57,663 nt of DNA from a virus, in the IMG/VR virus record IMGVR_UViG_3300045988_060146. One strand, written 5' to 3'. The translations under genes were made by a program, and so were the position numbers. Positions 1 through 57,663 of this stretch are shown here, in pieces. Position 1 is the stretch's first letter. Every line of letters starts with the position of its first letter. The notes under the pieces were generated by a model, which was not told the origin of the DNA, did not search any database, and saw nothing but the letters and a program-made list of their open reading frames with translations.

Positions 1-208
1 CAGAAACTATGGCAAGGTTTTTCGTGTGTACGAAAAAGCCGGAAAACTTGGAATCGATTGGAACACAGAAAAAAGCCCATACACCTGCAAGGGTGATGTG
101 TTTGCACCATTTGAAACCTTTGCGCCATCTGTAATATTTGAAAATATTGAAACCGGGGAACTTTTCCACTTCTCAAATATTAAAAATGCAGTTGTTAGAA
201 TAGCATAG
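1..208 (+). CDS. Hypothetical protein, 3' part of the junction-spanning gene that starts at 57547
   Basis: Frame of ORF 26..208 is continuous with the ATG at 57547 through the duplicated 55 nt. Combined product is 89 aa. Confidence 0.6.
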   Translation, partial: RNYGKVFRVYEKAGKLGIDWNTEKSPYTCKGDVFAPFETFAPSVIFENIETGELFHFSNIKNAVVRIA

Positions 209-288
209 CCGAAACGCTCCAAAATCGGAGCGTCCACCGTGGAACGGTCTCCCGGTGCTGATGATGGCAGACCAGAAAGGACGTAAAA

Positions 289-5761: not shown

Positions 5762-6038
5762 TTACTACACACTTTTTGGGGTGGTTACTACACAGTTACT
5801 ACACACTTTTCGCATTAAAATGCATTAAAATACATAGAATTTTATATTTTTTACGATTTTACGAAAGCTCCGCAGACCCTTTGTTTTCCTAGGATTGCGC
5901 CGTTATTTACGAAATCGTATGGCACTCCTTGATATACATAATAATTTTACCAGTTTTAGTATAAAAATACCCTACGAGCGTTGATTTTTCAACATTCTGT
6001 AAATTGAGAGTGTGTACTACTACACACTTACTACACAC
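5762..6038. promoter_or_regulatory. Putative attP with five direct TTACTACACA arm-type repeats
   Basis: Copies at 5762, 5785, 5796, 6017 (CTACTACACA) and 6028. They flank about 210 bp of non-coding DNA directly 3' of int. Confidence 0.5.
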
Positions 6039-7218
6039 ATTTTCTTCTATATTCTATGATTTTGTTGTCGGTGCTAACGATTTTTTCAATGTCAGCAAAC
6101 GATTTTTCAGGTGTAACATGTGTATACAAGTCCATTGTCATTTTCAGTGTTGCATGACCCAAATATGATTGAACGACTTTCGGCTCTATCCCTGACTCAA
6201 AACATCTTGTCGCAAACGTATGTCTAAACGTGTGACCGCTAAAAAATGGAAATTCATTGTCACTGCTCTTTGTATCATTTATCCGTCTTACAACTGAACG
6301 TATAGAGTCGCTGTATATAACCGAATTAATTGGTGTGTTAAACCTTGTAACAAACAAATATTCGTTTTGCTCCTTGGGTCTGCGTGCTGAAACTATCTTT
6401 TTAAGCTCAAATTGTTTCGTCAGATATTCCTTGCACACACTGTTAATTGGTACGTGTCTGTGACTCTGCTTGGTTTTTGGTGGCTCAACATGAAATGTCT
6501 TGCCTTTATCTTCAAGGTATTTCTGATACACAAGTGTCTTATTAACATCAATATACCCCTCGTCCATATGTATATCTGCAATCGTGAGTGCAAACAGTTC
6601 TCCTGGGCGCAAGCCTGTATTAACTGCCACATTATACATGTTGTCGTAAAATGTACCCTTGCACGCTTCAAAAAACTCGTTCTGTTGCTCTACTGTCAAT
6701 GCAAAAGCATTAACTTCTTTGTCTGCTCTCAGCTTTACACCTTTCGCCGGATTCTTAATCATCAGGTCATCTTCCATAGCTCTACTGAACATGTCATTTA
6801 AAATAACCTTGATTTTGCTCTGTCTCTCATACTTATAGTTATCGTCAGAAGCTTTGTCGATAAGTAACTGCACATCTGACTTGCGAATAGATGTTATTTC
6901 ATGGTTTCCTAAGTATGGTGAAATGTTCTTCTTATATATATGCGTGTACTCCCTAATGGTATTGGGGCGCACTCTCTTTTTCTTGTATACATTCATCCAC
7001 CTGTCAAACCACGCATCAAGGGTAATGCTGTCCCTAACACTTGTGAATTGTTGATTGTCGGTCACTGCTTTACTAAGTTCTTTCCGCAGTTCCGGCAACT
7101 TGCTGTTGTAAATTGTCTTGCTCTTGCCGAACCTATCTTTATATCTGCCCTGATAGAGTCCGTCCTTGCGCTGGGTTATTCCGACTCCCAGCTCTTTTCC
7201 TCTCAAATCCTTTCCCAT
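6031..7218 (-). CDS. int: Tyrosine integrase / site-specific recombinase
   Basis: 395 aa. N-terminal SAM-like domain; catalytic region includes HTFRHTFATRC and LGHATLKMTMDLYTHV. Confidence 0.92.
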   Translation of the reverse strand: MGKDLRGKELGVGITQRKDGLYQGRYKDRFGKSKTIYNSKLPELRKELSKAVTDNQQFTSVRDSITLDAWFDRWMNVYKKKRVRPNTIREYTHIYKKNISPYLGNHEITSIRKSDVQLLIDKASDDNYKYERQSKIKVILNDMFSRAMEDDLMIKNPAKGVKLRADKEVNAFALTVEQQNEFFEACKGTFYDNMYNVAVNTGLRPGELFALTIADIHMDEGYIDVNKTLVYQKYLEDKGKTFHVEPPKTKQSHRHVPINSVCKEYLTKQFELKKIVSARRPKEQNEYLFVTRFNTPINSVIYSDSIRSVVRRINDTKSSDNEFPFFSGHTFRHTFATRCFESGIEPKVVQSYLGHATLKMTMDLYTHVTPEKSFADIEKIVSTDNKIIEYRRKCV

Positions 7219-14214: not shown

Positions 14215-14520
14215 TTAAACACTTTTCTTCTGTAAGTTTGCCACAACTCTGCAACCATAAAGTTCTAACAAATCATGTAAATCAAACTCTTCTAATTCAT
14301 TCTCATCAGCGATTTTATCGCTATGCACAAGAATCTCATCATCCATCTCGGCTGCATGAATTGTCTGCCTAAGAATACTTAACATAGTATCTACTGCATA
14401 CTCAAAACCTTTAAGATTATCTTCGTTCATACCACCTGTAAGAGCGTCTTTCATTTTATTCATCTGTTCCTCTAAAAACTTTGGAACATTACAAGCTATA
14501 AACATCATTTCTTCATTCAT
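14215..14520 (-). CDS. Hypothetical acidic protein (101 aa)
   Basis: Start taken at MNEEMMF. Confidence 0.5.
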   Translation of the reverse strand: MNEEMMFIACNVPKFLEEQMNKMKDALTGGMNEDNLKGFEYAVDTMLSILRQTIHAAEMDDEILVHSDKIADENELEEFDLHDLLELYGCRVVANLQKKSV

Positions 14521-14591
14521 TTTCTTTTTTTCCTTTCTCATAAATACTTGATTTTTTAGGAACTATGGTTCAATAAACAAGCGGTCATGCC

Positions 14592-23779: not shown

Positions 23780-24499
23780 CTATGCAAAACTCTGTTGAGC
23801 GTTTGCATCCTGAATAAGCTCATCAAGATACTTAGGCACGACATAGCAATCAATAAACTCGTGCACATCGTCTATATACTTTCTCTTGATACTCTTATAA
23901 GTAGATACACAACCATACTCACGCTTTAACTGTGTCCATATATCAGAGAATGTCTTATGTCTGATACTGTTATCCCTGTATGCTTCGCTCTGCTTGCCAC
24001 CAAGAATATTTACAACTCTGCGCTTAACGTGCTGTTGTATCTCATCAATATCGCAACTGTAAAGTGGTACATTTTCCTTAAGCTCGCTCACATCATCTTT
24101 GATGTCGTTTACTTTCTGCTCTAATTCTGTATAGCCCTGCGCCAAAAGCTGTATCTGACCGCCTGTTGTCTTTGGCATACCATAACTGCCTGTTTTTCTG
24201 ATTGACGGAAGTACCTCATCCATTACCCACCGCTCAAATCTCTCTGCACTAGGCAATTTTGATTTCATAATAAGTCGGTATAAATCTCCCTCATTTATGT
24301 ATGACATAGACTGCACTCCACTAGATGTAGGGGTGTCGCGTTTCACGACTCCCTTGCAATGCCTAGAAACTGCATCTCTCGGTGACGCATACCCAAGTGC
24401 GGTTGCCACATCTGTTGCTACAAAATATGGCTTTCCGTCAATTTCTATCATTCGGACTTCTCCAAACTCTTCATTATTGAAAATTTGTAAATCGTTCAT
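23780..24499 (-). CDS. Antirepressor (Bro-N domain plus KilAC/ORF6C-like C-terminus)
   Basis: N-terminus LQIFNNEEFGEVRMIEIDGKPYFVATDVATALGY is a Bro-N/AntA signature. Confidence 0.8.
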   Translation of the reverse strand: MNDLQIFNNEEFGEVRMIEIDGKPYFVATDVATALGYASPRDAVSRHCKGVVKRDTPTSSGVQSMSYINEGDLYRLIMKSKLPSAERFERWVMDEVLPSIRKTGSYGMPKTTGGQIQLLAQGYTELEQKVNDIKDDVSELKENVPLYSCDIDEIQQHVKRRVVNILGGKQSEAYRDNSIRHKTFSDIWTQLKREYGCVSTYKSIKRKYIDDVHEFIDCYVVPKYLDELIQDANAQQSFA

Positions 24500-24511
24500 G
24501 TTTTCTCCTTT

Positions 24512-24721
24512 CTACTCGATAAAATAAGAAACTTCTACGCCAAAATAATTAGCAATCTTAATTAGCTTGTCTGTTTTTGGCATTGATTTTCCTGACTTCC
24601 AATCCGAAAAAGTACTCCGTGCCATTCCAAGCTCTTCCGACAGTTTGTAAAACGAAACGTTTCTAGCTTTTATGAGCGTGTCAAGTTTTTTAAAACTCGC
24701 CTGTCGTTTTTTCTTATTCAA
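24512..24721 (-). CDS. XRE-family HTH regulator (Cro-like), 69 aa
   Basis: TTG start after AAGGAGATGGG. HTH VSFYKLSEELGMARSTFSDWKSGKSMP. Confidence 0.7.
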   Translation of the reverse strand: MNKKKRQASFKKLDTLIKARNVSFYKLSEELGMARSTFSDWKSGKSMPKTDKLIKIANYFGVEVSYFIE

Positions 24722-24737
24722 TTTCCCATCTCCTTTC

Positions 24738-24766
24738 TTGACAATAGTTAGGAAATCCGTTACAAT
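24738..24766 (+). promoter_or_regulatory. Sigma-A promoter with an operator-like AGGAAATCCGTTA in the spacer
   Basis: TTGACA, 17 nt, TACAAT. The 13-mer is identical to the one in the promoter at 25796. Confidence 0.55.
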
Positions 24767-25096
24767 AAAAAGCGCCATATTAGGCAAAATACGCTAGGAG
24801 GTAAAAACCTTGAAAGCAATTTTGATTTTGCCTGTTCCATATTTGCGAGGTCGCATTTAAAATGTAGCAATCGGTGTAGCGCATTTTGGACAGTAAAGCT
24901 CGGCAAAAAATCATGGCTGGCATGTCGGCAATATGCCGTGCTACGCTAGATACTCCTCTCAATCCGTCAGCTAATGGCGATTAAACTGCTGAACTTAAAC
25001 TGCATAAGTGACGGAACATTTAAAGAAGCATTGTGTAGTACCAATGCGTTGAAAGACTTCAAAATGTATATGGTATAAAAAATATTGGAGGTCACT

Positions 25097-25462
25097 ATGC
25101 AATACAAACCAAATTACCCAAATATGGATAAATTATTTCCGCAACACAAAATTCCTAAAATTGAATCACCTACATATGAAAAAGACAAATCTCCATACGA
25201 GCTTTTAGAAAGTCAGTCTGCTTATCTCGAAAAGACAAGCAAGGAACTTCACGATATGGCTCAATCCGCTAAATCTCAAGCTGATTCCGCAAAAGAGATT
25301 GCTGAAAGTTCTAAAACGCAAGCTGATATTGCATTGGAAACATCGGGCAAGGCAGATGTTAAAGGTTGGATTTCTGTGGCTGTTTCTATCATCTGTGCTT
25401 TAATGGAATTTGCTGTACATCATTCAGAAATAATTGATTTTGTCAAAGCTTTGGCAAAATAA
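25097..25462 (+). CDS. Membrane-anchored coiled-coil protein (121 aa)
   Basis: GGAGG RBS. Repetitive SAKSQADSAKEIAESSKTQADIALE, then TM segment GWISVAVSIICALMEFAV. Confidence 0.55.
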   Translation: MQYKPNYPNMDKLFPQHKIPKIESPTYEKDKSPYELLESQSAYLEKTSKELHDMAQSAKSQADSAKEIAESSKTQADIALETSGKADVKGWISVAVSIICALMEFAVHHSEIIDFVKALAK

Positions 25463-25513
25463 AATGGCAAAAAATCTGAAACAGCAAAACAAATATTGAA
25501 AGCACTAATGCTA

Positions 25514-25535
25514 CATCTGAAACAGATGGTTTTTT
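25514..25535 (+). terminator. Rho-independent terminator
   Basis: CATCTG-AAA-CAGATG hairpin followed by GTTTTTT. Confidence 0.6.
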
Positions 25536-25554
25536 CATTTTTGCTCCTTTCTTT

Positions 25555-25767
25555 CTAATCCACGAAACTTTCAACCGGTTCATCAAGATAGCTTGCAATT
25601 TTAATCATGGTGTCTAATTTTGGCTTGCTTTTATCTCTCTTCCAATCTGAAAGCAACATAGGTGAAAAGTTCAAGTCTGTTGCTACTCGGTATGATGTGA
25701 TACCCTTTTTCTTCAAAATTTGCTCAAATCTCGAATATGATTGAGCATATTTCTTAGAATTATTCAT
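25555..25767 (-). CDS. XRE-family HTH regulator (Cro-like), 70 aa
   Basis: HTH ITSYRVATDLNFSPMLLSDWKRDKSKP. Divergent from the repressor gene. Confidence 0.75.
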   Translation of the reverse strand: MNNSKKYAQSYSRFEQILKKKGITSYRVATDLNFSPMLLSDWKRDKSKPKLDTMIKIASYLDEPVESFVD

Positions 25768-25795
25768 TTTTTACGCTCCTTTCCTTAAAAATATA

Positions 25796-25824
25796 TTGAT
25801 TTTATTAAGGAAATCCGTTATAAT
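25796..25824 (+). promoter_or_regulatory. Repressor-operon promoter with shared operator motif
   Basis: TTGATT, 17 nt, TATAAT. The spacer contains AGGAAATCCGTTA. TTAAGGAA/TTCCTTAA half-sites recur 4 times in 25781..25884. Confidence 0.6.
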
Positions 25825-25966
25825 GAAACTTACCAAGACAACAAAATAACAAAATTAAAACCTAGGTTTTAAGGCTTTCCTTAATCTAGGTCTAGTATAT
25901 TATGGTTTTCTTTAATTGTCAAGCATTATTTTAAAGTTTTCCATAATAATTTATGAGGGGTTTTTT

Positions 25967-26317
25967 ATGTATGAACATTATCAGAAATTACTAGACGAAA
26001 AAGGCTTGAAAAATGCCGATGTTTCAAGAGCTACAGGCATTTCAAACATGACTCTATCTGATTGGAAAAGAGGAAAGAGCGAGCCAAAAACTAAAAATAT
26101 GCAGAAAATTGCCGATTTTTTAGGAACTACCTTATCATATCTAGTTACAGGTGAAGAAAGTAACCCTATATTTGAACAAGCAAATACAGATTATGACCTT
26201 TCAAATATAGACAGTAAGCTCAAGGACTATGTATTTAAGTTATCTAAATTGTCGGATAAAGAGCTGGAAAGTATTATGAATTTAATAGATGTAATGTATG
26301 AAAAATACTCAAAATAA
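25967..26317 (+). CDS. XRE-family repressor (CI-like), 116 aa
   Basis: HTH LKNADVSRATGISNMTLSDWKRGKSEP plus a C-terminal extension. No S24 peptidase domain. Confidence 0.7.
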   Translation: MYEHYQKLLDEKGLKNADVSRATGISNMTLSDWKRGKSEPKTKNMQKIADFLGTTLSYLVTGEESNPIFEQANTDYDLSNIDSKLKDYVFKLSKLSDKELESIMNLIDVMYEKYSK

Positions 26318-26348
26318 ATTAAATTAATAAGAAAGGTGGTATTTTATT

Positions 26349-26576
26349 ATGAGTAAAACTGTTAAATGTCCTAAATTTGGTTGTGATGGTGTTGGCATAC
26401 CTGTTGATACCAAGAAAAAATTCTCGTTCGGTAAAGCGCTTGTTGGCAACACAGTAGGTGGTCTCTTCGGACCTGTCGGTGCCGTTGTCGGCGCTGCTAC
26501 CGGAATTAAAGGCAAGAGCGGCAAAACAAAGTTTGTGTGTTCAAAGTGTGGTAATGTTTGGGAAAAGAAAATATAA
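26349..26576 (+). CDS. Split zinc-ribbon protein with a central glycine-zipper segment (75 aa)
   Basis: CPKFGC ... GNTVGGLFGPVGAVVGAATGIKG ... CSKCG. Co-transcribed with the repressor. Confidence 0.6.
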   Translation: MSKTVKCPKFGCDGVGIPVDTKKKFSFGKALVGNTVGGLFGPVGAVVGAATGIKGKSGKTKFVCSKCGNVWEKKI

Positions 26577-26582
26577 CCACAA

Positions 26583-26611
26583 GGCAGAGTTTTTACTCTG
26601 CCTCTATTTTT
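26583..26611. terminator. Bidirectional rho-independent terminator
   Basis: GGCAGAG-TTTTTA-CTCTGCC hairpin followed by TCTATTTTT. Confidence 0.7.
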
Positions 26612-26697
26612 CCTTTAATAAATACATACAAGTACAATAACAGGTCTTTATCTTCCAAGCCCTCAATCATTTTAATTATTTCTTCTTTATATTCCAT
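26593..26697 (-). CDS. 34-aa ORF downstream of the SOS-box promoter
   Basis: GGAGGTGG RBS 7 nt before the ATG. Product MEYKEEIIKMIEGLEDKDLLLYLYVFIKGKIEAE. Ends in the terminator hairpin. Confidence 0.4.
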   Translation of the reverse strand: MEYKEEIIKMIEGLEDKDLLLYLYVFIKGKIEAE

Positions 26698-26720
26698 ACA
26701 ATGCCACCTCCGATACATCA

Positions 26721-26749
26721 ATTATAGAACATTTGTTCTTAAATATCAA
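26721..26749 (-). promoter_or_regulatory. Sigma-A promoter with an embedded LexA (Cheo) box
   Basis: Minus strand reads TTGATA, 17 nt, TATAAT. The spacer contains AGAACAAATGTTCT (GAAC-N4-GTTC) abutting the -10 box. Confidence 0.6.
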
Positions 26750-26899
26750 TATTAGGACGGCAGAAAAATCCACCGCCCTACCGAAACTTGAAGAGTTCTC
26801 TTGTTTGAGAACGTCATTACTGTAGCACTTTAAAGTGTTTTATTATGTCGAATATTGACAACATGGATTGTTTTGTAACCCTATTCCTGTAAAATAATC

Positions 26900-26926
26900 G
26901 AGAGGGCTTATGCCCTCTCTTTTTAT
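26900..26926. terminator. Strong hairpin terminator
   Basis: GAGAGGGC-TTAT-GCCCTCTC followed by TTTTTAT. Confidence 0.7.
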
Positions 26927-26950
26927 GCACAAAATCCTATTTGTGATAGT

Positions 26951-27280
26951 CTGCTAAACCAGAGTTTAGGTAATTTAAAGACAGAGTTTAATAAATCAAA
27001 TAGCATAAAAATTAAAGTTGGCACCGCAGTAAGAACAGCGACAAAGGGTGGAAATTCGTTTGTGTTATTTACCTTAGAAGAAGTCGAAAAAATGTTTGAG
27101 TTAGAAAGTCTCGCTACTAATAATATTGCTATATTAATAAGTAATGGTGATGGATCGGCTTTTCCTTGTCACTTAGAAGGTGTAACTGTATTAAATAATA
27201 AATGGCATGTAGTTTTTAAAGATATAATACAAATGAATATGAGTTGTAGAGTTCAATATGTAATATTTTATTGGAAATAA
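26951..27280 (+). other. Start-less alternative tail-fibre C-terminal cassette (silent in this orientation)
   Basis: Frame is open from 26879 with no ATG or RBS and runs through the terminator at 26900. In-frame LLNQSL junction. Stop codon lies 3 nt from the fibre gene's stop. Confidence 0.45.
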
Positions 27281-27283
27281 TAA

Positions 27284-28864
27284 TTATGTAGTAACGTATT
27301 CACCACTCATAATAATTGCGTACTTACCTGTTCCACCCTGATTTACTATATAACCATTTGAATCACTGTAGCATGGAACATAAGAGCCAGTACCTTTAAA
27401 TGCTGAAAAAGCATGGCAAGTTGTTTGTTTCATAGGATATTTGTTAATTTTAACTCTCCATGCCCCATCATTAGAATTTGCTATTTTACATCGTATTACA
27501 AAATAGACAAGTTTTCCTATCTTATAAACTTCCAAATAAAAGGCATTGCTGCTTTCTAAAGCAATTGAACCAGAAAAAGTTACATAATTAGTTGGTATAG
27601 TCGAAGTATAATAATCAATATCTAAACTTCGGTTTAATTCATCATATTTGTCATTTAAAATCTTGCCTTGACTCGCGTCTAATGCGCTTCCAGTGGTAGA
27701 AGTCGTGAGGTTATTCACCAAATCTTTAAAGGCAAAGCTTTTCAAATCAGCGAACCACTTCTTAATTTTTCCGAAGCCGACCGACACTTTTTCACCAGAA
27801 ACAAGGTTTGCTCTAGTTGTTGTAGCGGCAAAAGTAACTGTTGTATCGCTTATATTTCCACCTTCTGCAACCGCTCCGATATTGGCAGGAGTTATGTTTA
27901 CATTTCCTCTGCGATAATATGCTTCTTTTGCACCTTTTACTCCTGTTACCGGTGTGCCGGCAAGCACATCCCAATATCTATCAACAGTTAAATATACGTT
28001 ACTTCCGGCAGGAATTATATTACCAGCCCCCTCTTTAAAATCAGTGGTTGTGGTAAACTGGTCGGTTATATTGTACATATCACCAGAATTAGCATCCGCT
28101 GTGCTCGGTAAGTCGGCAAAGTTGATTGTTCCAAGAGGTCTTAATGCTCCGCTGAAGCTCTCAGATATTTCTTTAACTTGTTCTGCGTACTTTTGCGCTT
28201 CCGACTCGCTCTTTGCAGAGTTAGTCTCACTTGTCTTAGCATTGGTTTCAGAAGCCTTGGCTTTTGTTTCACTTGTCTTAGCGTTACTTGCAAAAGTTGA
28301 CGCGCTAGTAGCAGAAGCCTTGGCATTAGTTTCACTGTTTTTTGCGTTAGCTGCGCTTGTAGATGCATTAGTCTCTGATTTCTTGGCATTAGTTTCACTG
28401 GTCTTAGAATTTGTTTCACTCGCTTTAGCGTTACTTGCAGAGGTAGACGCACTGGTCTCACTTGCTTTAGCTTTTGTTTCACTCGCTTTAGCATTGGTTT
28501 CACTATTCCTTGCTTTTGTGGCCGAGTTTGACGCGTTGGTTTCACTGGTCTTTGCGTTGGTCTCGCTAGTTTTAGCATTACTTGCAGAGGTGGATGATTC
28601 TTGAGCTTTGCTTGTGGCAAGTTCTGCTGATTTTTGAGCTTGTGATACAGATTGAGCCATGCCGTCAAGATAGCTCTGAATAAGTCTTTGAATTTCAGTG
28701 TCAAAATCCTCAACAGTTCCCATCCGCTTAACTATTCCGGGTGCGAAACACATCCATATCTGCTGTTTTTTCGTGTCGGAGTCGGTCGATACCGCCCATT
28801 CTCCAGCTTTCATTTTTAAGGGGTCAAACTCCGCGTATGCCCCTCGTCTCATTTGAATTGCCAT
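27284..28864 (-). CDS. Tail fibre / receptor-binding protein
   Basis: N-terminus MAIQMRRGAYAEFDPLKMKAGEWAVSTDS (HylP/Mtd-N-like), heptad SETNAK repeat stalk and a globular C-terminus. Last gene of the tail module. Confidence 0.75.
   Translation of the reverse strand: MAIQMRRGAYAEFDPLKMKAGEWAVSTDSDTKKQQIWMCFAPGIVKRMGTVEDFDTEIQRLIQSYLDGMAQSVSQAQKSAELATSKAQESSTSASNAKTSETNAKTSETNASNSATKARNSETNAKASETKAKASETSASTSASNAKASETNSKTSETNAKKSETNASTSAANAKNSETNAKASATSASTFASNAKTSETKAKASETNAKTSETNSAKSESEAQKYAEQVKEISESFSGALRPLGTINFADLPSTADANSGDMYNITDQFTTTTDFKEGAGNIIPAGSNVYLTVDRYWDVLAGTPVTGVKGAKEAYYRRGNVNITPANIGAVAEGGNISDTTVTFAATTTRANLVSGEKVSVGFGKIKKWFADLKSFAFKDLVNNLTTSTTGSALDASQGKILNDKYDELNRSLDIDYYTSTIPTNYVTFSGSIALESSNAFYLEVYKIGKLVYFVIRCKIANSNDGAWRVKINKYPMKQTTCHAFSAFKGTGSYVPCYSDSNGYIVNQGGTGKYAIIMSGEYVTT
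28187..28645 (-). repeat. Coding tandem repeat, 21-nt (7-aa) periodicity
   Basis: About 20 units of (K/A)xSETNA, for example NAKTSETNAKTSETNASNS... Confidence 0.85.
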
Positions 28865-28867
28865 AAG

Positions 28868-31477
28868 CTATACCTCGCTTTCGTCAATGCCTAATTTCTG
28901 ACACAATCTTGAAAACTTATCTTCCAGTTCATCTGTGTGTTTTTGCATCTTATCAATCTTCTGCTCGTCTCCGGCAAGTCTTAAGATTAGGAATTGCTCA
29001 TAGTTCATGCCATAGTACAGTGTATCATCATCCGATGTTGCTTTATTTTGGAAAATCATATCAAGATTTTCATCGACATGTCCTTTATCTTTAAGATTCT
29101 CGATTATATCCTGCGCCATTGCTCCAAAATATAACGGCTTGTCTGAATATCCTCGTCTGTTAAGATTGTATTGGAATAAATCAACCGAGCCTACTGCATC
29201 AATATAATCTTGATTAATTGCTTTAATATTCTTTTTTAAGTGTTTATCTGACGAACTCCATACCCAAGTAGTATCAACTTGGAAACTTAAGGCACTGCCA
29301 TTCCAACCGCAATGGTATGTATGCCCTGTTGCGTCACCACACATTGCATATCCTCTATCGGTTTCTCTGAATTTATCAGAGCCTATCTCTTGAGCATACA
29401 TTGTCTGTGCACCTATAGAGCCTGTGGCTCCGTAAATGGTAATCAAGTTCTCATCATTTTTGACAATTCGCAATACCGCACCATTCATCCAAAGCTCATA
29501 ATTGTTTCCTGAATTGTCAGTGGCCGTTAAATCAATCGTTGAATTACTTAAATTTCCGTTCAGTGCAATACTCCCACCGGACATATTAAGATTTGAAGCG
29601 GTTACTTTTCCATCACTATCAACTGCAAACACTCCATTTCCAATATCAATTGTTCCGCCAACAATATTCTTGCCGGTAATTGTTGTTCCTGTGATGTCCT
29701 CCGCGTCAACTGAACCGGCCTTAACATCAAGTGCATTTACATAGCTTGTAGTCACTGTGTCTTTGGTTATTTGAGTGACTTTAGCAGTAGCTTCAGCCAC
29801 ATTATCCCAAGCAATTTTCACACTGCTATCAAGTGCAATGCCTTTATTATCCAGCGTTACAAGTGTCTTTCCGTTTGCGTCTTTGACATACTGCTTGCCG
29901 TTTGTGTTATTCTCACCGCCTAAAGTGAGCGTGCCACCATGCGCCCAGTCAAAATTAATGCCAATAGCAGACATAATATTGAAAATAGCGTTTCCGTCTT
30001 TATCAATTCCGGCATTCCACGTTTTACCATAGTCACTTGATACAGCCATGCCATTAGCCGTCATTTTCCACTGTATGTTGCTCGAATTAAGGTCGGCTTT
30101 ATTGTGCATGATGTAAATAATCGAGCCATCCTCTTGCTTCTGCTCGGTCTTAAAAAGTCCGAGTGATTGTGACATTAGCTGTGTCAGTAATTGCATTTGC
30201 TTGTCATATGCACTTAGTTGTGCCTGTGCAACTTTCCTAGCTTGTACGACAGCCTTTGTCTCATTACTGAATTTATCAGCACTATTTCTTGAAGCATTTT
30301 CAGCGTCGCACGAAATTTTTGTGCCACTTCCAACTGTAAATGTTCGGTTAGAAATAAAACAGCTATAGGTATTCTGCTTGCGGTCTGTCACAAGTGCTAC
30401 ATCTCCGCTCTCAATCAGTGGGTTTGACAAGAGTGTAGCATCAAGGGGTCTGAACCTCATGCCACCGATTTTTTTGAATATATAGTTTGCAACTGTCTGT
30501 GCCTTGTCTGCCGGAATGAAGGGATTGTCAGAGATTGAGACTACATATCCCTCTTTTCCGGCAAGTGCATTAACATCTTTTGCCTTATCCTCTTTTGAGG
30601 TTACAGTTACCTTTACCCCGGTGATAACAACATCATCAGTCGCAACATTCAAGTCTTTTTGCGTGTAAATATTGTGGTAATTTCTCGCCTCCGTGAATGT
30701 TCCACCATCAGCAATATCTCCACTTGAATAGTCGGTAAAATTTCCACCATCAACACTATCTCCGTCAGAGTATGGTGTAGTTTTTGTGCTAAAAGTTCCA
30801 CCATTGTAATTTTGGCTCCCAAACTGGCTCATATCATACCAGCCGATAAGCAATTCGCCATCATGACCGCACTTGCCCCATAATCCACTCAACTGCAAAA
30901 TATAGGCTATTACTTGTCCATATGTGAGCTTTTGATTATCACTCGGTATCTCGTTAATCACGTAATCAGAGTTATCAAATCTCGCCATAGTAAAAGGTAC
31001 ATCACACTTAATACAAGCGTCTCTGACTACCTCATACGTTGTCGTAGGGTAGCTTAAATTGCTATCATACTCACGATTGAAATTATTAATATTGTCAAGA
31101 CAAGTAAGCGTTATAAGCGAGCCGTCATAGCTTGTCTCGCTGACTCTATACTCACCGATTTTTAGTTTTTCACTTGTGCCATCAGAAAAGCTTTTTGAAA
31201 CATATGCTGTTACTCTTGCCTTGTCAAAATCATACTTGCTGTAATCTTCATAAATATTATTCAGCTTAATTTTCAGTTTTCCGGCAATCAAAGCCCCGAT
31301 TGTGAAAGTGCCATTGCTTGATGTTGAGTCATTAATTTCGAAGCCATTCGCCCACAGCTCACTATCACTAATAGGGATTTTTTCGCCACTTGCCGTAACT
31401 ATGTCAGCAAAACAATTTACATTTATATCATTATCGAGCATTACTGCTCTTTGCCATTTAGCCGATACGTTAAGCAT
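28868..31477 (-). CDS. Tail tip/tail-associated protein with a C-terminal S74 intramolecular chaperone domain
   Basis: 869 aa. C-terminus SSDKHLKKNIKAI...LFQYNLN...YFGAMAQDI is typical of the S74 auto-processing domain. Confidence 0.75.
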   Translation of the reverse strand: MLNVSAKWQRAVMLDNDINVNCFADIVTASGEKIPISDSELWANGFEINDSTSSNGTFTIGALIAGKLKIKLNNIYEDYSKYDFDKARVTAYVSKSFSDGTSEKLKIGEYRVSETSYDGSLITLTCLDNINNFNREYDSNLSYPTTTYEVVRDACIKCDVPFTMARFDNSDYVINEIPSDNQKLTYGQVIAYILQLSGLWGKCGHDGELLIGWYDMSQFGSQNYNGGTFSTKTTPYSDGDSVDGGNFTDYSSGDIADGGTFTEARNYHNIYTQKDLNVATDDVVITGVKVTVTSKEDKAKDVNALAGKEGYVVSISDNPFIPADKAQTVANYIFKKIGGMRFRPLDATLLSNPLIESGDVALVTDRKQNTYSCFISNRTFTVGSGTKISCDAENASRNSADKFSNETKAVVQARKVAQAQLSAYDKQMQLLTQLMSQSLGLFKTEQKQEDGSIIYIMHNKADLNSSNIQWKMTANGMAVSSDYGKTWNAGIDKDGNAIFNIMSAIGINFDWAHGGTLTLGGENNTNGKQYVKDANGKTLVTLDNKGIALDSSVKIAWDNVAEATAKVTQITKDTVTTSYVNALDVKAGSVDAEDITGTTITGKNIVGGTIDIGNGVFAVDSDGKVTASNLNMSGGSIALNGNLSNSTIDLTATDNSGNNYELWMNGAVLRIVKNDENLITIYGATGSIGAQTMYAQEIGSDKFRETDRGYAMCGDATGHTYHCGWNGSALSFQVDTTWVWSSSDKHLKKNIKAINQDYIDAVGSVDLFQYNLNRRGYSDKPLYFGAMAQDIIENLKDKGHVDENLDMIFQNKATSDDDTLYYGMNYEQFLILRLAGDEQKIDKMQKHTDELEDKFSRLCQKLGIDESEV

Positions 31478-51611: not shown

Positions 51612-52544
51612 TTAGTACTCTATAATGCCTTGTGCCAACTGTAGCAGATAGTCGCTTTTAGCAAAATGTGTTATCGAGTAGTTAGTCTGTTTTCTATGTG
51701 TTCGTCTGAAATGCTCGTTAACCATTCTATCAAGCCCTGTAAGCCCCGTTTCGTCTGCTAGGTAAACATCTGTCCACTCAAAGTGATTATGCTCCGTATC
51801 GGTCACATTAGAAAGCGACAGGCATACATTAGTCAGTGTCTTATCAGTCAAGATTGGATGAACCTTACAAAAATAATTTTCGTACAGGCACATGTATCTG
51901 TGAAATGAGCTTTTAACTGTTCTTCTGATTGTCTCGTTTTCAATACTGTTGTCACAGATTTCAAAGAATCTATAGAGCATATCATCTTTCTTTGCTTGCA
52001 TATCCTGTCGGGTGACTCTTGCCGTCTGTTCCTGAAGAACAGATGTATGTACCTCTCCTATAGTTTCACTTATATTATCTTTTATATTATCTATATTATT
52101 ATTATGAGTATCAACTTTTTGAACACCCTCGTTCAAGTTTTTTGAACACCCATTATATTTTTTTGAACAGGTGTTCAATTTTTTTGAACTCCGTTCAGCT
52201 TTTTCTTTTTCCTTTCGGATTTGCTTTCTTAATTTTATTTTTTTCAATTCCTCATCATCGGGTTTGACTGCACTATAATTGCAAAATTTTACTCCGTTGA
52301 TAGTTTTCTCCGTCTTTTTAATGAAACCATCATCAGCTAATTTGTTAAGAAGATTAAAGGCTGTGGTTCTTGAACAATTCAGCCACTCTGCAACATAATT
52401 TAGACTTCCCTTAAATTCGCTCTCATCGTCTTGTGAAAAGCCATACACTAGTGCATAGGCAATTAATTCATTTCCTGTAAGCCCTAATTCCTTTACCATA
52501 AACCCTTGAATTGCTATAAAATTTTCATTTTTAATTTTTGCCAT
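51612..52544 (-). CDS. Winged-helix DNA-binding protein (310 aa)
   Basis: N-terminus LTGNELIAYALVYGFSQD...LNYVAEWLNCSRTTAFNLLNKLADDGFI. Confidence 0.55.
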   Translation of the reverse strand: MAKIKNENFIAIQGFMVKELGLTGNELIAYALVYGFSQDDESEFKGSLNYVAEWLNCSRTTAFNLLNKLADDGFIKKTEKTINGVKFCNYSAVKPDDEELKKIKLRKQIRKEKEKAERSSKKLNTCSKKYNGCSKNLNEGVQKVDTHNNNIDNIKDNISETIGEVHTSVLQEQTARVTRQDMQAKKDDMLYRFFEICDNSIENETIRRTVKSSFHRYMCLYENYFCKVHPILTDKTLTNVCLSLSNVTDTEHNHFEWTDVYLADETGLTGLDRMVNEHFRRTHRKQTNYSITHFAKSDYLLQLAQGIIEY

Positions 52545-52670
52545 TTTATTTACCTCCTACGAAAGATAATAAGAGCGTGCCGCCTTATTCGCTCAACTCT
52601 ACGATTAGTAATAACAACAAACAGGCAGTCGTAGTTCTGCTTTTCGGTAGCTAACCTAGTTTGTTGTAAT

Positions 52671-52750
52671 CGGATAGACAGGAATCGAACCTGTGGCTCC
52701 CTCAATTACTGCTGTTGCAGTGGTTGTTCTTCCAACTGAACTACTATCCG
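52671..52750 (-). ncRNA. tRNA-like element lacking a normal anticodon loop
   Basis: Perfect acceptor (CGGAUAG/CUAUCCG), D arm (GUUC..GAAC) and T arm (ACAGG-UUCGAUU-CCUGU). The middle 30 nt fold as ACUGC-AACA-GCAGU. Confidence 0.5.
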
Positions 52751-52961
52751 AAAAGGCAAGATACACTCCATCAAAAGGCTCATCAAAACACATTACAGAA
52801 TTTTGAAGTGTCTCACCCCATTGCTTTCAGTCGCGCGTACCTACTAGCAACTTGTTTTTGTGTGTTTTCTTTTATTTTTCCGAAACTGCTATATTGCAGG
52901 CCTCCGTCAGCATTACGCAACCGCTATTCAAGATATAACAGCTCGCACTAAACCGACATAT

Positions 52962-53110
52962 GATTGATGTGGTGTGGATTTGAACCACACATAAAGCGTG
53001 CACTCTTTACGTTGGAGGGAATCGAACCCATAGGCATAACCCAAATGTTTTTAATCCATATGCCTGTCTCCTGACCATTCGCTACTTACCCTTTTGTATA
53101 CACATCAATA
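52962..53110 (-). ncRNA. Composite tRNA-like element with two T-arm motifs
   Basis: A 9-bp terminal helix (53101..53109 pairs with 52963..52971) stacks on GUGUGG-UUCAAAU-CCACAC. There is also a variable-arm-like hairpin and an internal GGG-UUCGAUU-CCC. Confidence 0.35.
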
Positions 53111-53130
53111 GTCGGTGTCCCCCGACTAGC

Positions 53131-53216
53131 GCAGATACAAGGACTCGAACCTTGATAACGATTTTACTCGTTAGAGAGATTAGCAATCTCCTGTGATACC
53201 ATTACACCATATCTGC
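53131..53216 (-). tRNA. tRNA-Ser (anticodon GCU), type II
   Basis: Hand-folded cloverleaf: acceptor GCAGAUA/UAUCUGC, anticodon loop UUGCUAA, long variable arm AACGA..UCGUU, T arm CAAGG-UUCGAGU-CCUUG. Confidence 0.85.
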
Positions 53217-53377
53217 AAGCGAGTGTTTTTTTTACTTGGTTTCCACTCACCCAAGGATTTTTTAGTCAGCCGCAAGCGGCTCAATCCAGTTCCCTGTACT
53301 AAGTTTATCCGGAATATTAATTAGTACCTGCATTTCTCTAATAAACGCACTCGGAGTGTACTGGCAATAACGCCAAT

Positions 53378-53449
53378 CGGCAAGGTTGGGAATCGAACCC
53401 ACGACCAATCAGCTAATAGCCGACTGCTCTACCACTGAGCTACATGCCG
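53378..53449 (-). tRNA. Aberrant tRNA, anticodon loop CUAUUAG (AUU); possible pseudo-tRNA
   Basis: Good D arm and T loop. However, there is a U-U mismatch in the acceptor, a G-A mismatch in the T stem, one extra nt before the 3' acceptor strand, and A34. Confidence 0.45.
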
Positions 53450-53694
53450 TTAAACAGAACCAACCTGATAGCTCTGCTTAAGCAAAAAATACGAAAAATT
53501 TCATTAAAGGGAAGAACCCTTAATTGCAGAAATGATACTATGCAACAGTTAGTCGGCACCTTTAGACAGGGACATGCGTTATGATTTTCTGTTGTTTATT
53601 GGTAGAGTGTTGCCCAGCTGTTTACCCGACTTGTATCTCACGCAACACCTTGTAGCTGCTACCATATCTTACGCTATATTTTATTTCTGCAAGC

Positions 53695-53766
53695 TGGCTT
53701 GATAGGACTCGAACCTACAACTACTTGATTAACAGTCAAGCGTTCTACCCGTTGAACTACAAGCCA
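53695..53766 (-). tRNA. tRNA-Asn (anticodon GUU)
   Basis: Acceptor UGGCUUG/CAAGCCA, D arm GUUC..GAAC, anticodon arm CUUGA-CUGUUAA-UCAAG, T arm GUAGG-UUCGAGU-CCUAU. Confidence 0.9.
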
Positions 53767-54118
53767 ATAATGAGGGTGAAGTCTAAGGAGTGGCAACACC
53801 CTCCGGAGATATAAATTTGTATGTGCTGTAGGAAAAGAACTAACGAAACCTACAGCAAAGGACATGTGAGGAATTGCACCTCACCTAAGACTCATATGAT
53901 TTGAGTTGCCCTAGTTTAACAATTAATTAAAGGGGGTATATATGTCTACTCTGCCTGTTACAGATGTCTTTGCGACAGGTTGGTTTTCACGCTCGTGCAT
54001 TGTGGGATTATGCACGATTAAACCCTCACGAGCCTTGTGACGGCTCTTAACAGCTTTCCACTATGAGGGTGAAAGGAACTACTAAGTCCAATGTCGGGGA
54101 ACCAAGTAAACCCCGAAC

Positions 54119-54189
54119 AGGGCATGTTGGATTTGAACCAACGAATGCGGGAATCAAAATCCCGTGCCTTACTGCTTGGCGAATGCCCT
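54119..54189 (-). tRNA. tRNA-Gln (anticodon UUG)
   Basis: Acceptor AGGGCAU/AUGCCCU, anticodon arm CGGGA-UUUUGAU-UCCCG, T arm GUUGG-UUCAAAU-CCAAC. Resembles E. coli tRNA-Gln. Confidence 0.88.
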
Positions 54190-54193
54190 ATAT

Positions 54194-57546: not shown

Positions 57547-57663
57547 ATGAAAACAAACGATACAATCAAAGTACATTTATACGATTTGCACAATAAGGAG
57601 ATACAAACCAGAAACTATGGCAAGGTTTTTCGTGTGTACGAAAAAGCCGGAAAACTTGGAATC
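57547..57663 (+). CDS. Hypothetical protein, 5' part of the junction-spanning gene (continues at nt 56..208)
   Basis: AGAGGG RBS and ATG at 57547. The frame is continuous across the circular junction. Confidence 0.6.
   Translation, partial: MKTNDTIKVHLYDLHNKEIQTRNYGKVFRVYEKAGKLGI
57609..57663 (+). repeat. 55-nt terminal duplication of nt 1-55 (circular-contig overlap)
   Basis: Read directly: cagaaactatggcaaggtttttcgtgtgtacgaaaaagccggaaaacttggaatc occurs at both ends. Confidence 0.95.

Follow-up and report, generated by a model that had tools for sequence, protein, structure and literature searches.

A candidate LexA-controlled antirepressor of 34 amino acids convergent with a repressor lacking a self-cleavage domain in a temperate gut phage

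Several temperate phages sense DNA damage through an antirepressor gene that is repressed by the host regulator LexA. In the AimX-AimC-AimL 'extended arbitrium' module of the Bacillus phages phi106, phiW23, BMBtp14, Wbeta and Waukesha92, the AimX proteins have 29-80 amino acids (aa), are reportedly highly divergent among themselves and have genes that follow a terminator and a LexA site and are convergent with that of a short helix-turn-helix (HTH) repressor, and the aimX promoter answers to both AimR and LexA (10.1101/2025.11.23.689978; PDB 9iaq, 9sf2). Two-hybrid assays, size-exclusion chromatography coupled to multi-angle light scattering, electrophoretic mobility shift assays and stop-codon and recoding mutants established that AimX binds the C-terminal oligomerisation domain of the repressor, and the effector is the open reading frame (ORF) and not an antisense RNA: a stop-codon mutant abolished the effect in phi106 and phiW23, and recoding of the antisense overlap in phi106 did not (10.1101/2025.11.23.689978). 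Other LexA-controlled antirepressors are GfoA and GfhA of Gifsy-1/3, Tum of Fels-2/186 and AntC of N15 in Gram-negative bacteria (PMC3121763) and Sar of the Sar-SroF pair of SPbeta/phi3T (10.1101/2025.11.27.690993). Here we analyse a locus in the IMG/VR virus record IMGVR_UViG_3300045988_060146, a stretch of 57,663 nucleotides (nt) referred to as the window, in which a 34-aa ORF with a LexA box in its promoter is convergent with a gene for a 116-aa repressor. The features on which the argument turns are as follows.

26721-26749, minus strand: sigma-A-type promoter, TTGATA, 17 nt, TATAAT (promoter scan)
26726-26739 (core 26738-26727), no strand assigned: LexA (Cheo) box AGAACAAATGTTCT, exact GAAC-N4-GTTC at the end of the spacer
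26704-26711, minus strand: ribosome-binding site GGAGGTGG, 6 nt before the ATG, read from the sequence
26593-26697, minus strand: 34-aa gene, candidate antirepressor with a predicted two-helix hairpin (selection, family, AlphaFold2)
25967-26317, plus strand: 116-aa XRE-type repressor, proposed target of the peptide (Pfam, AlphaFold2)

A sequence-only reading that preceded this analysis had described a near-consensus minus-strand promoter with a Cheo box in its spacer abutting the -10 box, followed by a ribosome-binding site and the 34-aa ORF, and each of these elements is present. The promoter (-35 box at 26749-26744, -10 box at 26726-26721) matches at 11 of 12 positions and is the top promoter-like site in 25400-27400, and the last T of the LexA box doubles as the first base of the -10 box. 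The 5' untranslated region consists of just ATCG before the ribosome-binding site, and the ORF runs from an ATG at 26697 to a stop codon at 26595-26593. In most other subfamilies of the peptide (L200, L170, L173, L142, L190, L144) the 5' untranslated region is 40-60 nt long and begins, ~6-7 nt after TATAAT, with a conserved ATCGCTAC.

The 34-codon ORF, encoding MEYKEEIIKMIEGLEDKDLLLYLYVFIKGKIEAE, is a real gene under purifying selection at the protein level. A word-index search returned 45 homologue clusters at 85-97% identity, nearly all of them called as 34 aa, and loci were taken from IMG/VR by means of a 20-mer internal to the ORF, so that the sample is unbiased as to the promoter. Of the 26 substitution events seen in 45 distinct ORF sequences, 18 are at codon position 3, the ratio of nonsynonymous to synonymous substitution rates is ~0.11 in the annotated frame versus 0.60 and 3.4 in the other two frames, and none of the 45 DNA variants has lost the start codon or gained a stop codon. 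Gene calls of 41 aa in public data are gene-caller artefacts, and a 42-aa version starting at a TTG (26721) cannot be the product because this start falls inside the -10 box.

The peptide belongs to a larger family. A profile search of 1.84 billion representatives recovered 35 representatives at E<=1e-3, with 33 more distant small proteins, and a second profile search with the alignment of these small proteins recovered 324 clusters. Family members are mostly 34-60 aa long, with up to 121 aa over all clusters, are recognisable at 40-50% identity and share the consensus M[DE]YK..II.MI..IED...L.YL[YH].FIK followed by GKI.AE or LFLEKWG; they have no Pfam, NCBIfam or meaningful PHROG match. Some of the longer proteins (73-121 aa; the L082-type P0081, P0082 and P0089) are gene calls that join two small-protein units by tandem duplication or fusion. 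As found here, the family comes from metagenomic data and metagenome-assembled genomes (MAGs) only, with some clusters also listed as occurring in NCBI assemblies, and it is widespread in gut Clostridia phages, where it occurs without arbitrium. AlphaFold2 predicts from the family alignment a two-helix hairpin with helices at residues 3-12 and 17-33 (predicted local distance difference test, pLDDT, 95). The peptide is acidic and amphipathic. A LexA-regulated type I toxin of the TisB or DinQ kind was considered and rejected, given this acidic character, a hydrophobic run of only ~9 residues, the soluble-type hairpin of the AlphaFold2 model and the lack of a regional Rfam match: for the conserved upstream block plus the ORF, Rfam returned nothing at the gathering threshold and chance-level matches only at E<=5.

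The operator assigned to clostridial LexA is GAAC-N4-GTT[CT] (PMC4234289). Exact GAAC-N4-GTTC sites occur three times in the window versus 0.46 expected, a number reached in 1 of 100 shuffles, and sites with one mismatch are not enriched over the whole window (12 versus 15.8 expected), so that the case for a LexA box rests on position and conservation and not on genome-wide counts. The only well-placed box in the window is that on the small-ORF promoter. It is retained in 119 of ~121 close relatives fetched with the ORF-internal pattern, with L060, which has GAAC-N4-GTTT on the other strand, as the one exception among them; because the region is ~95% identical within this close family, retention there carries little weight. 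In these relatives the -10 box is nearly invariant and the -35 box is variable (TTGATA, TTGACG, TTGCCG, TTGGCG). Distant subfamilies of the peptide were retrieved with back-translated ORF patterns, and at least eight of them carry the GTTC-TATAAT fusion with other central bases and diverged promoter flanks. Across the subfamilies, the half-sites GAAC and GTTC are fixed and remain fused to TATAAT while the central four nt (AAAT, TTAT, TGAT, CTAT, ATAC, ACAC, ATAT), the -35 box and the flanks differ. The following variants of box plus -10 were found.

CGAAC[TTAT/TGAT/CTAT]GTTCTATAAT
[CA]GAACA[TC]ACGTTCTATAAT
AGAACACACGTTCTATAAT
CGAACATACGTTCTATAAT
CGAACAAATGTTCTATAAT
AGAACATATGTTCTATAAC
AGAACATACGTTCTATAAT

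Over the family as a whole, GAAC-N4-GTT[CT] lies within 170 nt upstream of 167 of 191 genes and in 26 of 31 peptide groups, versus 0.026 expected per window of that size. The same box stands alongside partner repressors of at least four DNA-binding-domain types; since the DNA-binding domain of the repressor changes type and the box does not, the box would be read by a host factor of constant specificity and not by the phage repressor.

The 116-aa protein had been described from the sequence as a CI-like repressor without an S24 domain, and this description holds: its Pfam matches are HTH_3, HTH_19 and HTH_26 only, and Pfam found no S24 self-cleavage domain. The AlphaFold2 model (mean pLDDT 87) consists of a five-helix HTH domain (residues 1-61), a low-confidence linker and a C-terminal two-helix hairpin (residues 83-93 and 97-115). 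The window and almost every group examined have, convergent with the small ORF, a gene for an XRE repressor of 113-129 aa that lacks S24, the two genes often abutting or overlapping by a few bases in other groups, and the repressor is followed by a divergent cro-like gene and then by a Bro/KilAC gene annotated as an antirepressor; the two most divergent singleton groups are without the convergent-repressor arrangement. All partner repressors have in common the C-terminal motif [YF]K[LF]S.L[SD]..[DE]K..I..[LM]ID.ML.

The peptide varies together with this C-terminal part of the repressor. Peptide distance follows the distance between the C-terminal 38 aa of the repressors (Mantel r = 0.93, partial r = 0.84) and not, once the C-terminus is controlled for, that between their N-terminal HTH domains (partial r = -0.15). 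In pairs with different HTH domains and similar C-termini the peptides are 91% identical, versus 55% in the reverse case. The two immunity types in which the peptide is of the window type have repressors with near-invariant C-terminal ~35 aa and different HTH halves (53% identity overall), and in a variant cassette found in the window's own lineage the peptide (P0095 type, ~50% identity), the repressor and cro are swapped together.

The best full-length Foldseek matches of the repressor model include SinR-SinI (1b0n), AimC (9iaq) and the phi106 repressor-AimX complex (9sf2), the AimC-type matches having E ~1e-3 and a template modelling score of ~0.46. The full repressor profile matches 9sf2_A (E = 1.7e-5, residues 6-107) and 9iaq_A (E = 5.8e-5); the profile of the C-terminal domain alone matches neither.

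Combining these data, we suggest that the lysogeny switch senses SOS through this locus, in which a LexA-derepressed helical-hairpin antirepressor blocks oligomerisation of the repressor, and we consider this reading reasonably likely. In the sequence of events that we infer, host LexA would bind in a lysogen to the GAAC-N4-GTTC box overlapping the -10 box and keep the small promoter shut, and a hairpin directly upstream (H3, see below) would shield this promoter from read-through. Upon DNA damage LexA would cleave itself, the small promoter would fire and the 34-aa protein would be made; its two-helix hairpin would then bind the C-terminal helical hairpin of the 116-aa repressor, the presumed oligomerisation domain, and the breaking of repressor oligomers would release the operators and start the early operon on the cro side. 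The sequence-only reading had likewise proposed a LexA-controlled small antirepressor for a non-cleavable repressor, and purifying selection on the peptide, the conserved fusion of box and -10, the gene order and the AimX-AimC-AimL precedent lend support to this proposal.

Several observations weigh against this interpretation. Physical linkage by itself could account for the way in which the peptide varies with the repressor C-terminus, because the peptide gene adjoins the 3' end of the repressor operon and recombination breakpoints could give the same pattern. The peptide and its own repressor give no BLASTP alignment, a Smith-Waterman score of 24 versus 25 +/- 4.6 in shuffles (p ~0.5) and an hhalign P of 0.024 with 2% probability; a SinI-like relationship, in which the peptide would be a sequence paralogue of the repressor C-terminus and which was prompted by LEDKDL versus LSDKEL, is unsupported by these alignments, and the two have only the fold class of a two-helix hairpin, with similar helix lengths in the AlphaFold2 models, in common. 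The profile of the C-terminal domain alone has no detectable homology to AimC or SinR, the peptide profile searched against the PDB at E<=10 finds no AimX chain and no detectable homology to AimX or SinI, and Foldseek finds no match with the peptide. In addition, the abundant P0095 type of the same phage lineage has a degraded left half-site (AAGC-ATAT-GTTC), a few singleton members of the family are without any box, and the LexA operator is assumed from other Clostridia for a host that is just probably a member of the Lachnospiraceae. Finally, a Bro-N/ORF6C gene of the classical 'antirepressor' type (23780-24499) lies downstream of cro in the phage's early operon.

The immediate surroundings of the small ORF and the repressor gene contain three further features.

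26582-26603, no strand assigned: hairpin terminator between the convergent units, strong on the plus strand and weaker on the minus strand
26349-26576, plus strand: 75-aa zinc-ribbon/glycine-zipper protein (PHROG 3845, 6837, 24502)
25555-25767, minus strand: 70-aa Cro-like HTH gene, divergent from the repressor gene (Pfam HTH_3)

The hairpin had been taken for a bidirectional terminator shared by the two units. This holds for the plus strand, on which it is called as the terminator of the repressor operon; on the minus strand it is not called, and there the same 10-bp hairpin holds the stop codon of the small ORF and is followed by an interrupted U-tract, UUGUGGUUAUAUUUUC, on account of which termination of the small transcript may be leaky. 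In the 75-aa protein a split zinc ribbon (CPxxGC ... CSKCG) flanks a hydrophobic stretch of the glycine-zipper type, and the protein matches the C-terminal ends of larger members of the three PHROGs. Its gene is co-oriented and apparently co-transcribed with the repressor gene. In most other subfamilies it is absent between the small ORF and the repressor; it is optional cargo and not a constant part of the module, and its product possibly serves in exclusion or defence. As a partner of the peptide it was rejected because the gene is missing from most subfamilies. The switch region between the repressor and cro-like genes (25768-25966) has promoter-like sites that face each other (plus strand 25796-25824, minus strand 25922-25894), so that the repressor-side and cro-side transcripts would overlap, a layout resembling the transcriptional-interference arrangement of the P2/186 type. 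It also contains a perfect 14-bp palindrome, AAAACCTAGGTTTT, and no GAAC-N4-GTTC site even with one mismatch. A GIL01-type mechanism, another option of the sequence-only reading, does not fit this locus because a CI/Cro-type switch is present and has no LexA box in it.

Upstream of the promoter lies a non-coding block with the following features.

26753-26780, minus strand: hairpin H3, 12-bp stem and UUUU loop, directly upstream of the -35 box
26795-26812, minus strand: hairpin H2, GTTCTC-loop-GAGAAC, stems constant
26846-26852, minus strand: TTCGACA motif at the upstream edge of the conserved block (alignment of relatives)

The whole upstream block folds with a z-score of -4.3. In H3, variants exchange a G.U pair for A-U or G-C and the loop TTTT for AAAA, and in some relatives a different hairpin followed by a T-tract, GTTTTGTATT, takes its place; H3 probably acts as a terminator and so keeps transcription coming from upstream out of the LexA promoter. 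The aimP terminator, which precedes the LexA site in phi106 (10.1101/2025.11.23.689978), is its counterpart. Over 99 unique sequences, the stems of H2 are constant while its loop varies in length and sequence. The conserved block at 26795-26852 (minus strand) also contains the palindrome CACTTTAAAGTG, in place of which ~10 relatives have unrelated sequence. Four independent peptide subfamilies also have TTCGACA upstream of the gene; beyond this motif the relatives are mosaic, with a tail fibre gene, a reverse transcriptase of a diversity-generating retroelement (DGR) plus XkdX, or DUF4352. A sigma-A promoter starting at TTCGACA was rejected, the spacing to any -10-like hexamer being at least 21 nt. 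In a broader and very doubtful scenario, the family would be a large set of cognate-specific 'decoy hairpin' antirepressors that sets the SOS inducibility of many prophages of gut Lachnospiraceae and other Clostridia, and the upstream block (TTCGACA, H2, H3) would provide a second input: factor-dependent antitermination or a binding site, for example, could do for the small-ORF promoter what AimR does for aimX, and the promoter would integrate DNA damage with another signal.

Three other explanations of the locus have to be weighed against a LexA-derepressed antirepressor. The sequence-only reading had allowed for antisense RNA or convergent interference as the effector, with read-through into the zinc-ribbon and repressor genes lowering the repressor level by polymerase collision or RNA pairing and the peptide being secondary. 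This option is less favoured here, and we regard it as unlikely: selection on the amino-acid sequence is strong, the protein family can still be recognised at 40-50% identity, and in the window the ORF is set apart from the repressor by the 10-bp hairpin and by a 228-nt gene. This separation is qualified by the interrupted U-tract and the failure of the scan to call a terminator on the minus strand, and many other subfamilies have no terminator between the two genes, the small ORF reaching up to or into the 3' end of the repressor gene, so that antisense transcription is unavoidable there. Against an RNA effector, the stop-codon mutants of phi106 and phiW23 lost the effect, which the recoded phi106 did not (10.1101/2025.11.23.689978). 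The peptide and antisense mechanisms could coexist.

Alternatively, a LexA-regulated peptide may act elsewhere, on host LexA or RecA (as in the case of gp7 of GIL01), on cell division or on the zinc-ribbon/glycine-zipper protein, the position beside the repressor being a convenient insertion site. Small proteins are common in SOS regulons, the proposed contact between peptide and repressor is backed indirectly, by the conserved gene order and the co-variation with the repressor C-terminus, and this co-variation is explicable by linkage; nevertheless, a host target predicts one conserved peptide and not many subfamilies that change with the repressor C-terminus, the repressor is the one conserved neighbour across phage backbones whereas the zinc-ribbon gene is usually absent, and an acidic, amphipathic peptide has too short a hydrophobic stretch for a membrane toxin. 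We consider this explanation rather improbable. It is highly improbable, in our view, that the gene is not under SOS control at all and that the palindrome is the operator of a phage-encoded regulator or a mere part of a conserved promoter. The ~95% identity of the close family, the lack of enrichment of one-mismatch sites in the genome and the degraded boxes of some subfamilies are compatible with such an origin; however, the half-sites equal the Firmicute/clostridial LexA operator exactly (PMC4234289), they persist while the central bases, the -35 box, the flanks and the type of repressor DNA-binding domain change, and the palindromes of the switch region, such as AAAACCTAGGTTTT, differ from them.

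The first 55 nt of the window (1-55) recur at 57609-57663, and the window is therefore a circular assembly and a complete phage genome of ~57.6 kb, with a G+C content of 38.6%. The phage, which we take to be temperate, has a tyrosine integrase gene (6031-7218) and, at 52669-54190 (minus strand), a cluster of five tRNA genes, one of them for tRNA-Asn with an ATT anticodon. Tail genes lie immediately upstream of the small ORF, so positioned that the lysogeny module comes straight after the tail-fibre genes.

27284-28864, minus strand: tail fibre gene, upstream of the small ORF

Between the tail fibre gene and the small ORF are ~520 nt, the sole content of which is one 72-aa ORF without a match. 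The order of the lysogeny region is tail fibre (minus), these ~520 nt, small ORF (minus), zinc-ribbon gene (plus), XRE repressor (plus), Cro-like gene (minus), an HTH gene and the Bro-N/ORF6C gene. In many close relatives (L001, L005-L007, L010, L012, L132, L134, L135) a DGR, with an RVT_1 reverse transcriptase beside a 422-aa tail protein and XkdX, stands between the tail genes and the module; the window has no DGR there. Also inside the lysogeny region, a FuFi-1 RNA (Rfam RF02986, 93.8 bits) at 24963-25115 (plus strand) overlaps the start of a phrog_32192 gene (25085-25462).

Among GenBank phages, megablast with 24000-29000 and tblastn with two family peptides found no match, and the terminase has at most 36% identity to anything. 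Cluster names are no more specific than 'Caudoviricetes sp.', and the exact promoter pattern was not found in GTDB genomes. The repressor profile has matches in two Lachnospiraceae MAGs among the GTDB species representatives, and from these two matches the host is probably a member of the Lachnospiraceae.

Elsewhere in the window, an exact GAAC-N4-GTTC site at 52165 was rejected as a LexA box, being part of iteron-like GTGTTCAAAAA repeats and not in a promoter. These repeats, at 52110-52200 (minus strand), lie inside ORF 51612-52544, which has a weak HTH_36 match, and could mark a replication origin situated in the gene of an initiator. Another exact Cheo-type box at 14560-14571 (GAACTATGGTTC, or GAACCATAGTTC on the minus strand) has a weak promoter-like context, TTGTTT-16-TAAAAA, upstream of an acidic 108-aa ORF (14215-14541, minus strand), possibly a second phage gene under LexA control. 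A type II hammerhead ribozyme is found at 207-276 (plus strand) and an int-alpA RNA at 52602-52666 (minus strand), adjoining tRNA-Leu.

Metagenomes are the only source for most prophages of gut Firmicutes, and where the repressors of these have no cleavage domain, little is known of how DNA damage is sensed. The family of 34-aa-type proteins, with its 324 clusters, is invisible to Pfam, PHROGs and NCBIfam and easily missed because its members are so small. If our interpretation is correct, the locus would provide a sequence signature for predicting SOS-inducible prophages of Lachnospiraceae, the antirepressor logic of the Bacillus arbitrium phages would extend to gut phages without arbitrium, and the family would supply naturally matched peptide/repressor pairs for studying specificity and the cross-talk of co-resident prophages.

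The order of elements is the same as in AimX-AimC-AimL: a terminator, a LexA site, a helical small ORF, a convergent HTH repressor that has 80-140 aa and no cleavage domain, and a divergent cro-like gene. With 34 aa, compared with 29-80 aa in the AimX systems, the small protein is of like size; AimC and the repressor described here both consist of an HTH domain, a linker and a C-terminal helical oligomerisation domain, in our case a predicted one, and in both systems the small protein varies along with the repressor. The two differ in host clade, Bacillus versus gut Clostridia, and in what lies upstream, which is the AimR receptor and the AimP propeptide in the Bacillus module and a tail-fibre gene and a non-coding block here; the AimR model gave a sub-threshold hit only in the window, to the cro-like HTH (18.5 bits versus a cut-off of 70). 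Unlike in AimX-AimC-AimL, a zinc-ribbon gene and a hairpin terminator separate ORF and repressor, and no sequence similarity was detected between AimX and the peptide or between the C-terminal domains of AimC and of the repressor. Because the C-terminal and peptide profiles find none, the resemblance is one of architecture and not of demonstrable homology.

The logic of Gifsy, 186 and N15 is the same, in that the repressor is not cleavable and SOS is sensed via LexA repression of a separate antirepressor gene. Their LexA operator is CTGT-N8-ACAG, versus GAAC-N4-GTTC here, and their antirepressors are larger (Tum of 186 has ~146 aa), have unrelated sequences and are not encoded convergently with the repressor. 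Like the locus, Sar-SroF comes from a Firmicute phage, has a LexA box in front of the gene for a small antirepressor and places a repressor that cannot be cleaved under SOS induction, with cognate specificity; for the locus, induction and specificity are predictions. SroF is an integrase-fold repressor that acts as a monomer on DNA and Sar mimics DNA, whereas the XRE HTH repressor here has a C-terminal domain that is helical. SinI-SinR of Bacillus subtilis (1b0n) is of the same type as the proposed pair, a small two-helix protein antagonising an XRE HTH repressor via its C-terminal helical domain. SinI is homologous to the C-terminal domain of SinR, whereas no significant similarity connects the peptide to its repressor, and SinI is not LexA-controlled. 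In GIL01 (PMC4551915), also a Firmicute phage, host LexA and a small phage protein take part in the control of lysogeny; there the lytic promoter itself is under LexA repression, with gp7 as a co-repressor, whereas here a CI/Cro-type switch is present and the box is on the small-ORF promoter. The strategy of combining a LexA-controlled antirepressor with a non-cleavable repressor is known from Gifsy, 186 Tum and Sar, and AimX follows the same logic; what is new here is the protein family and its setting.

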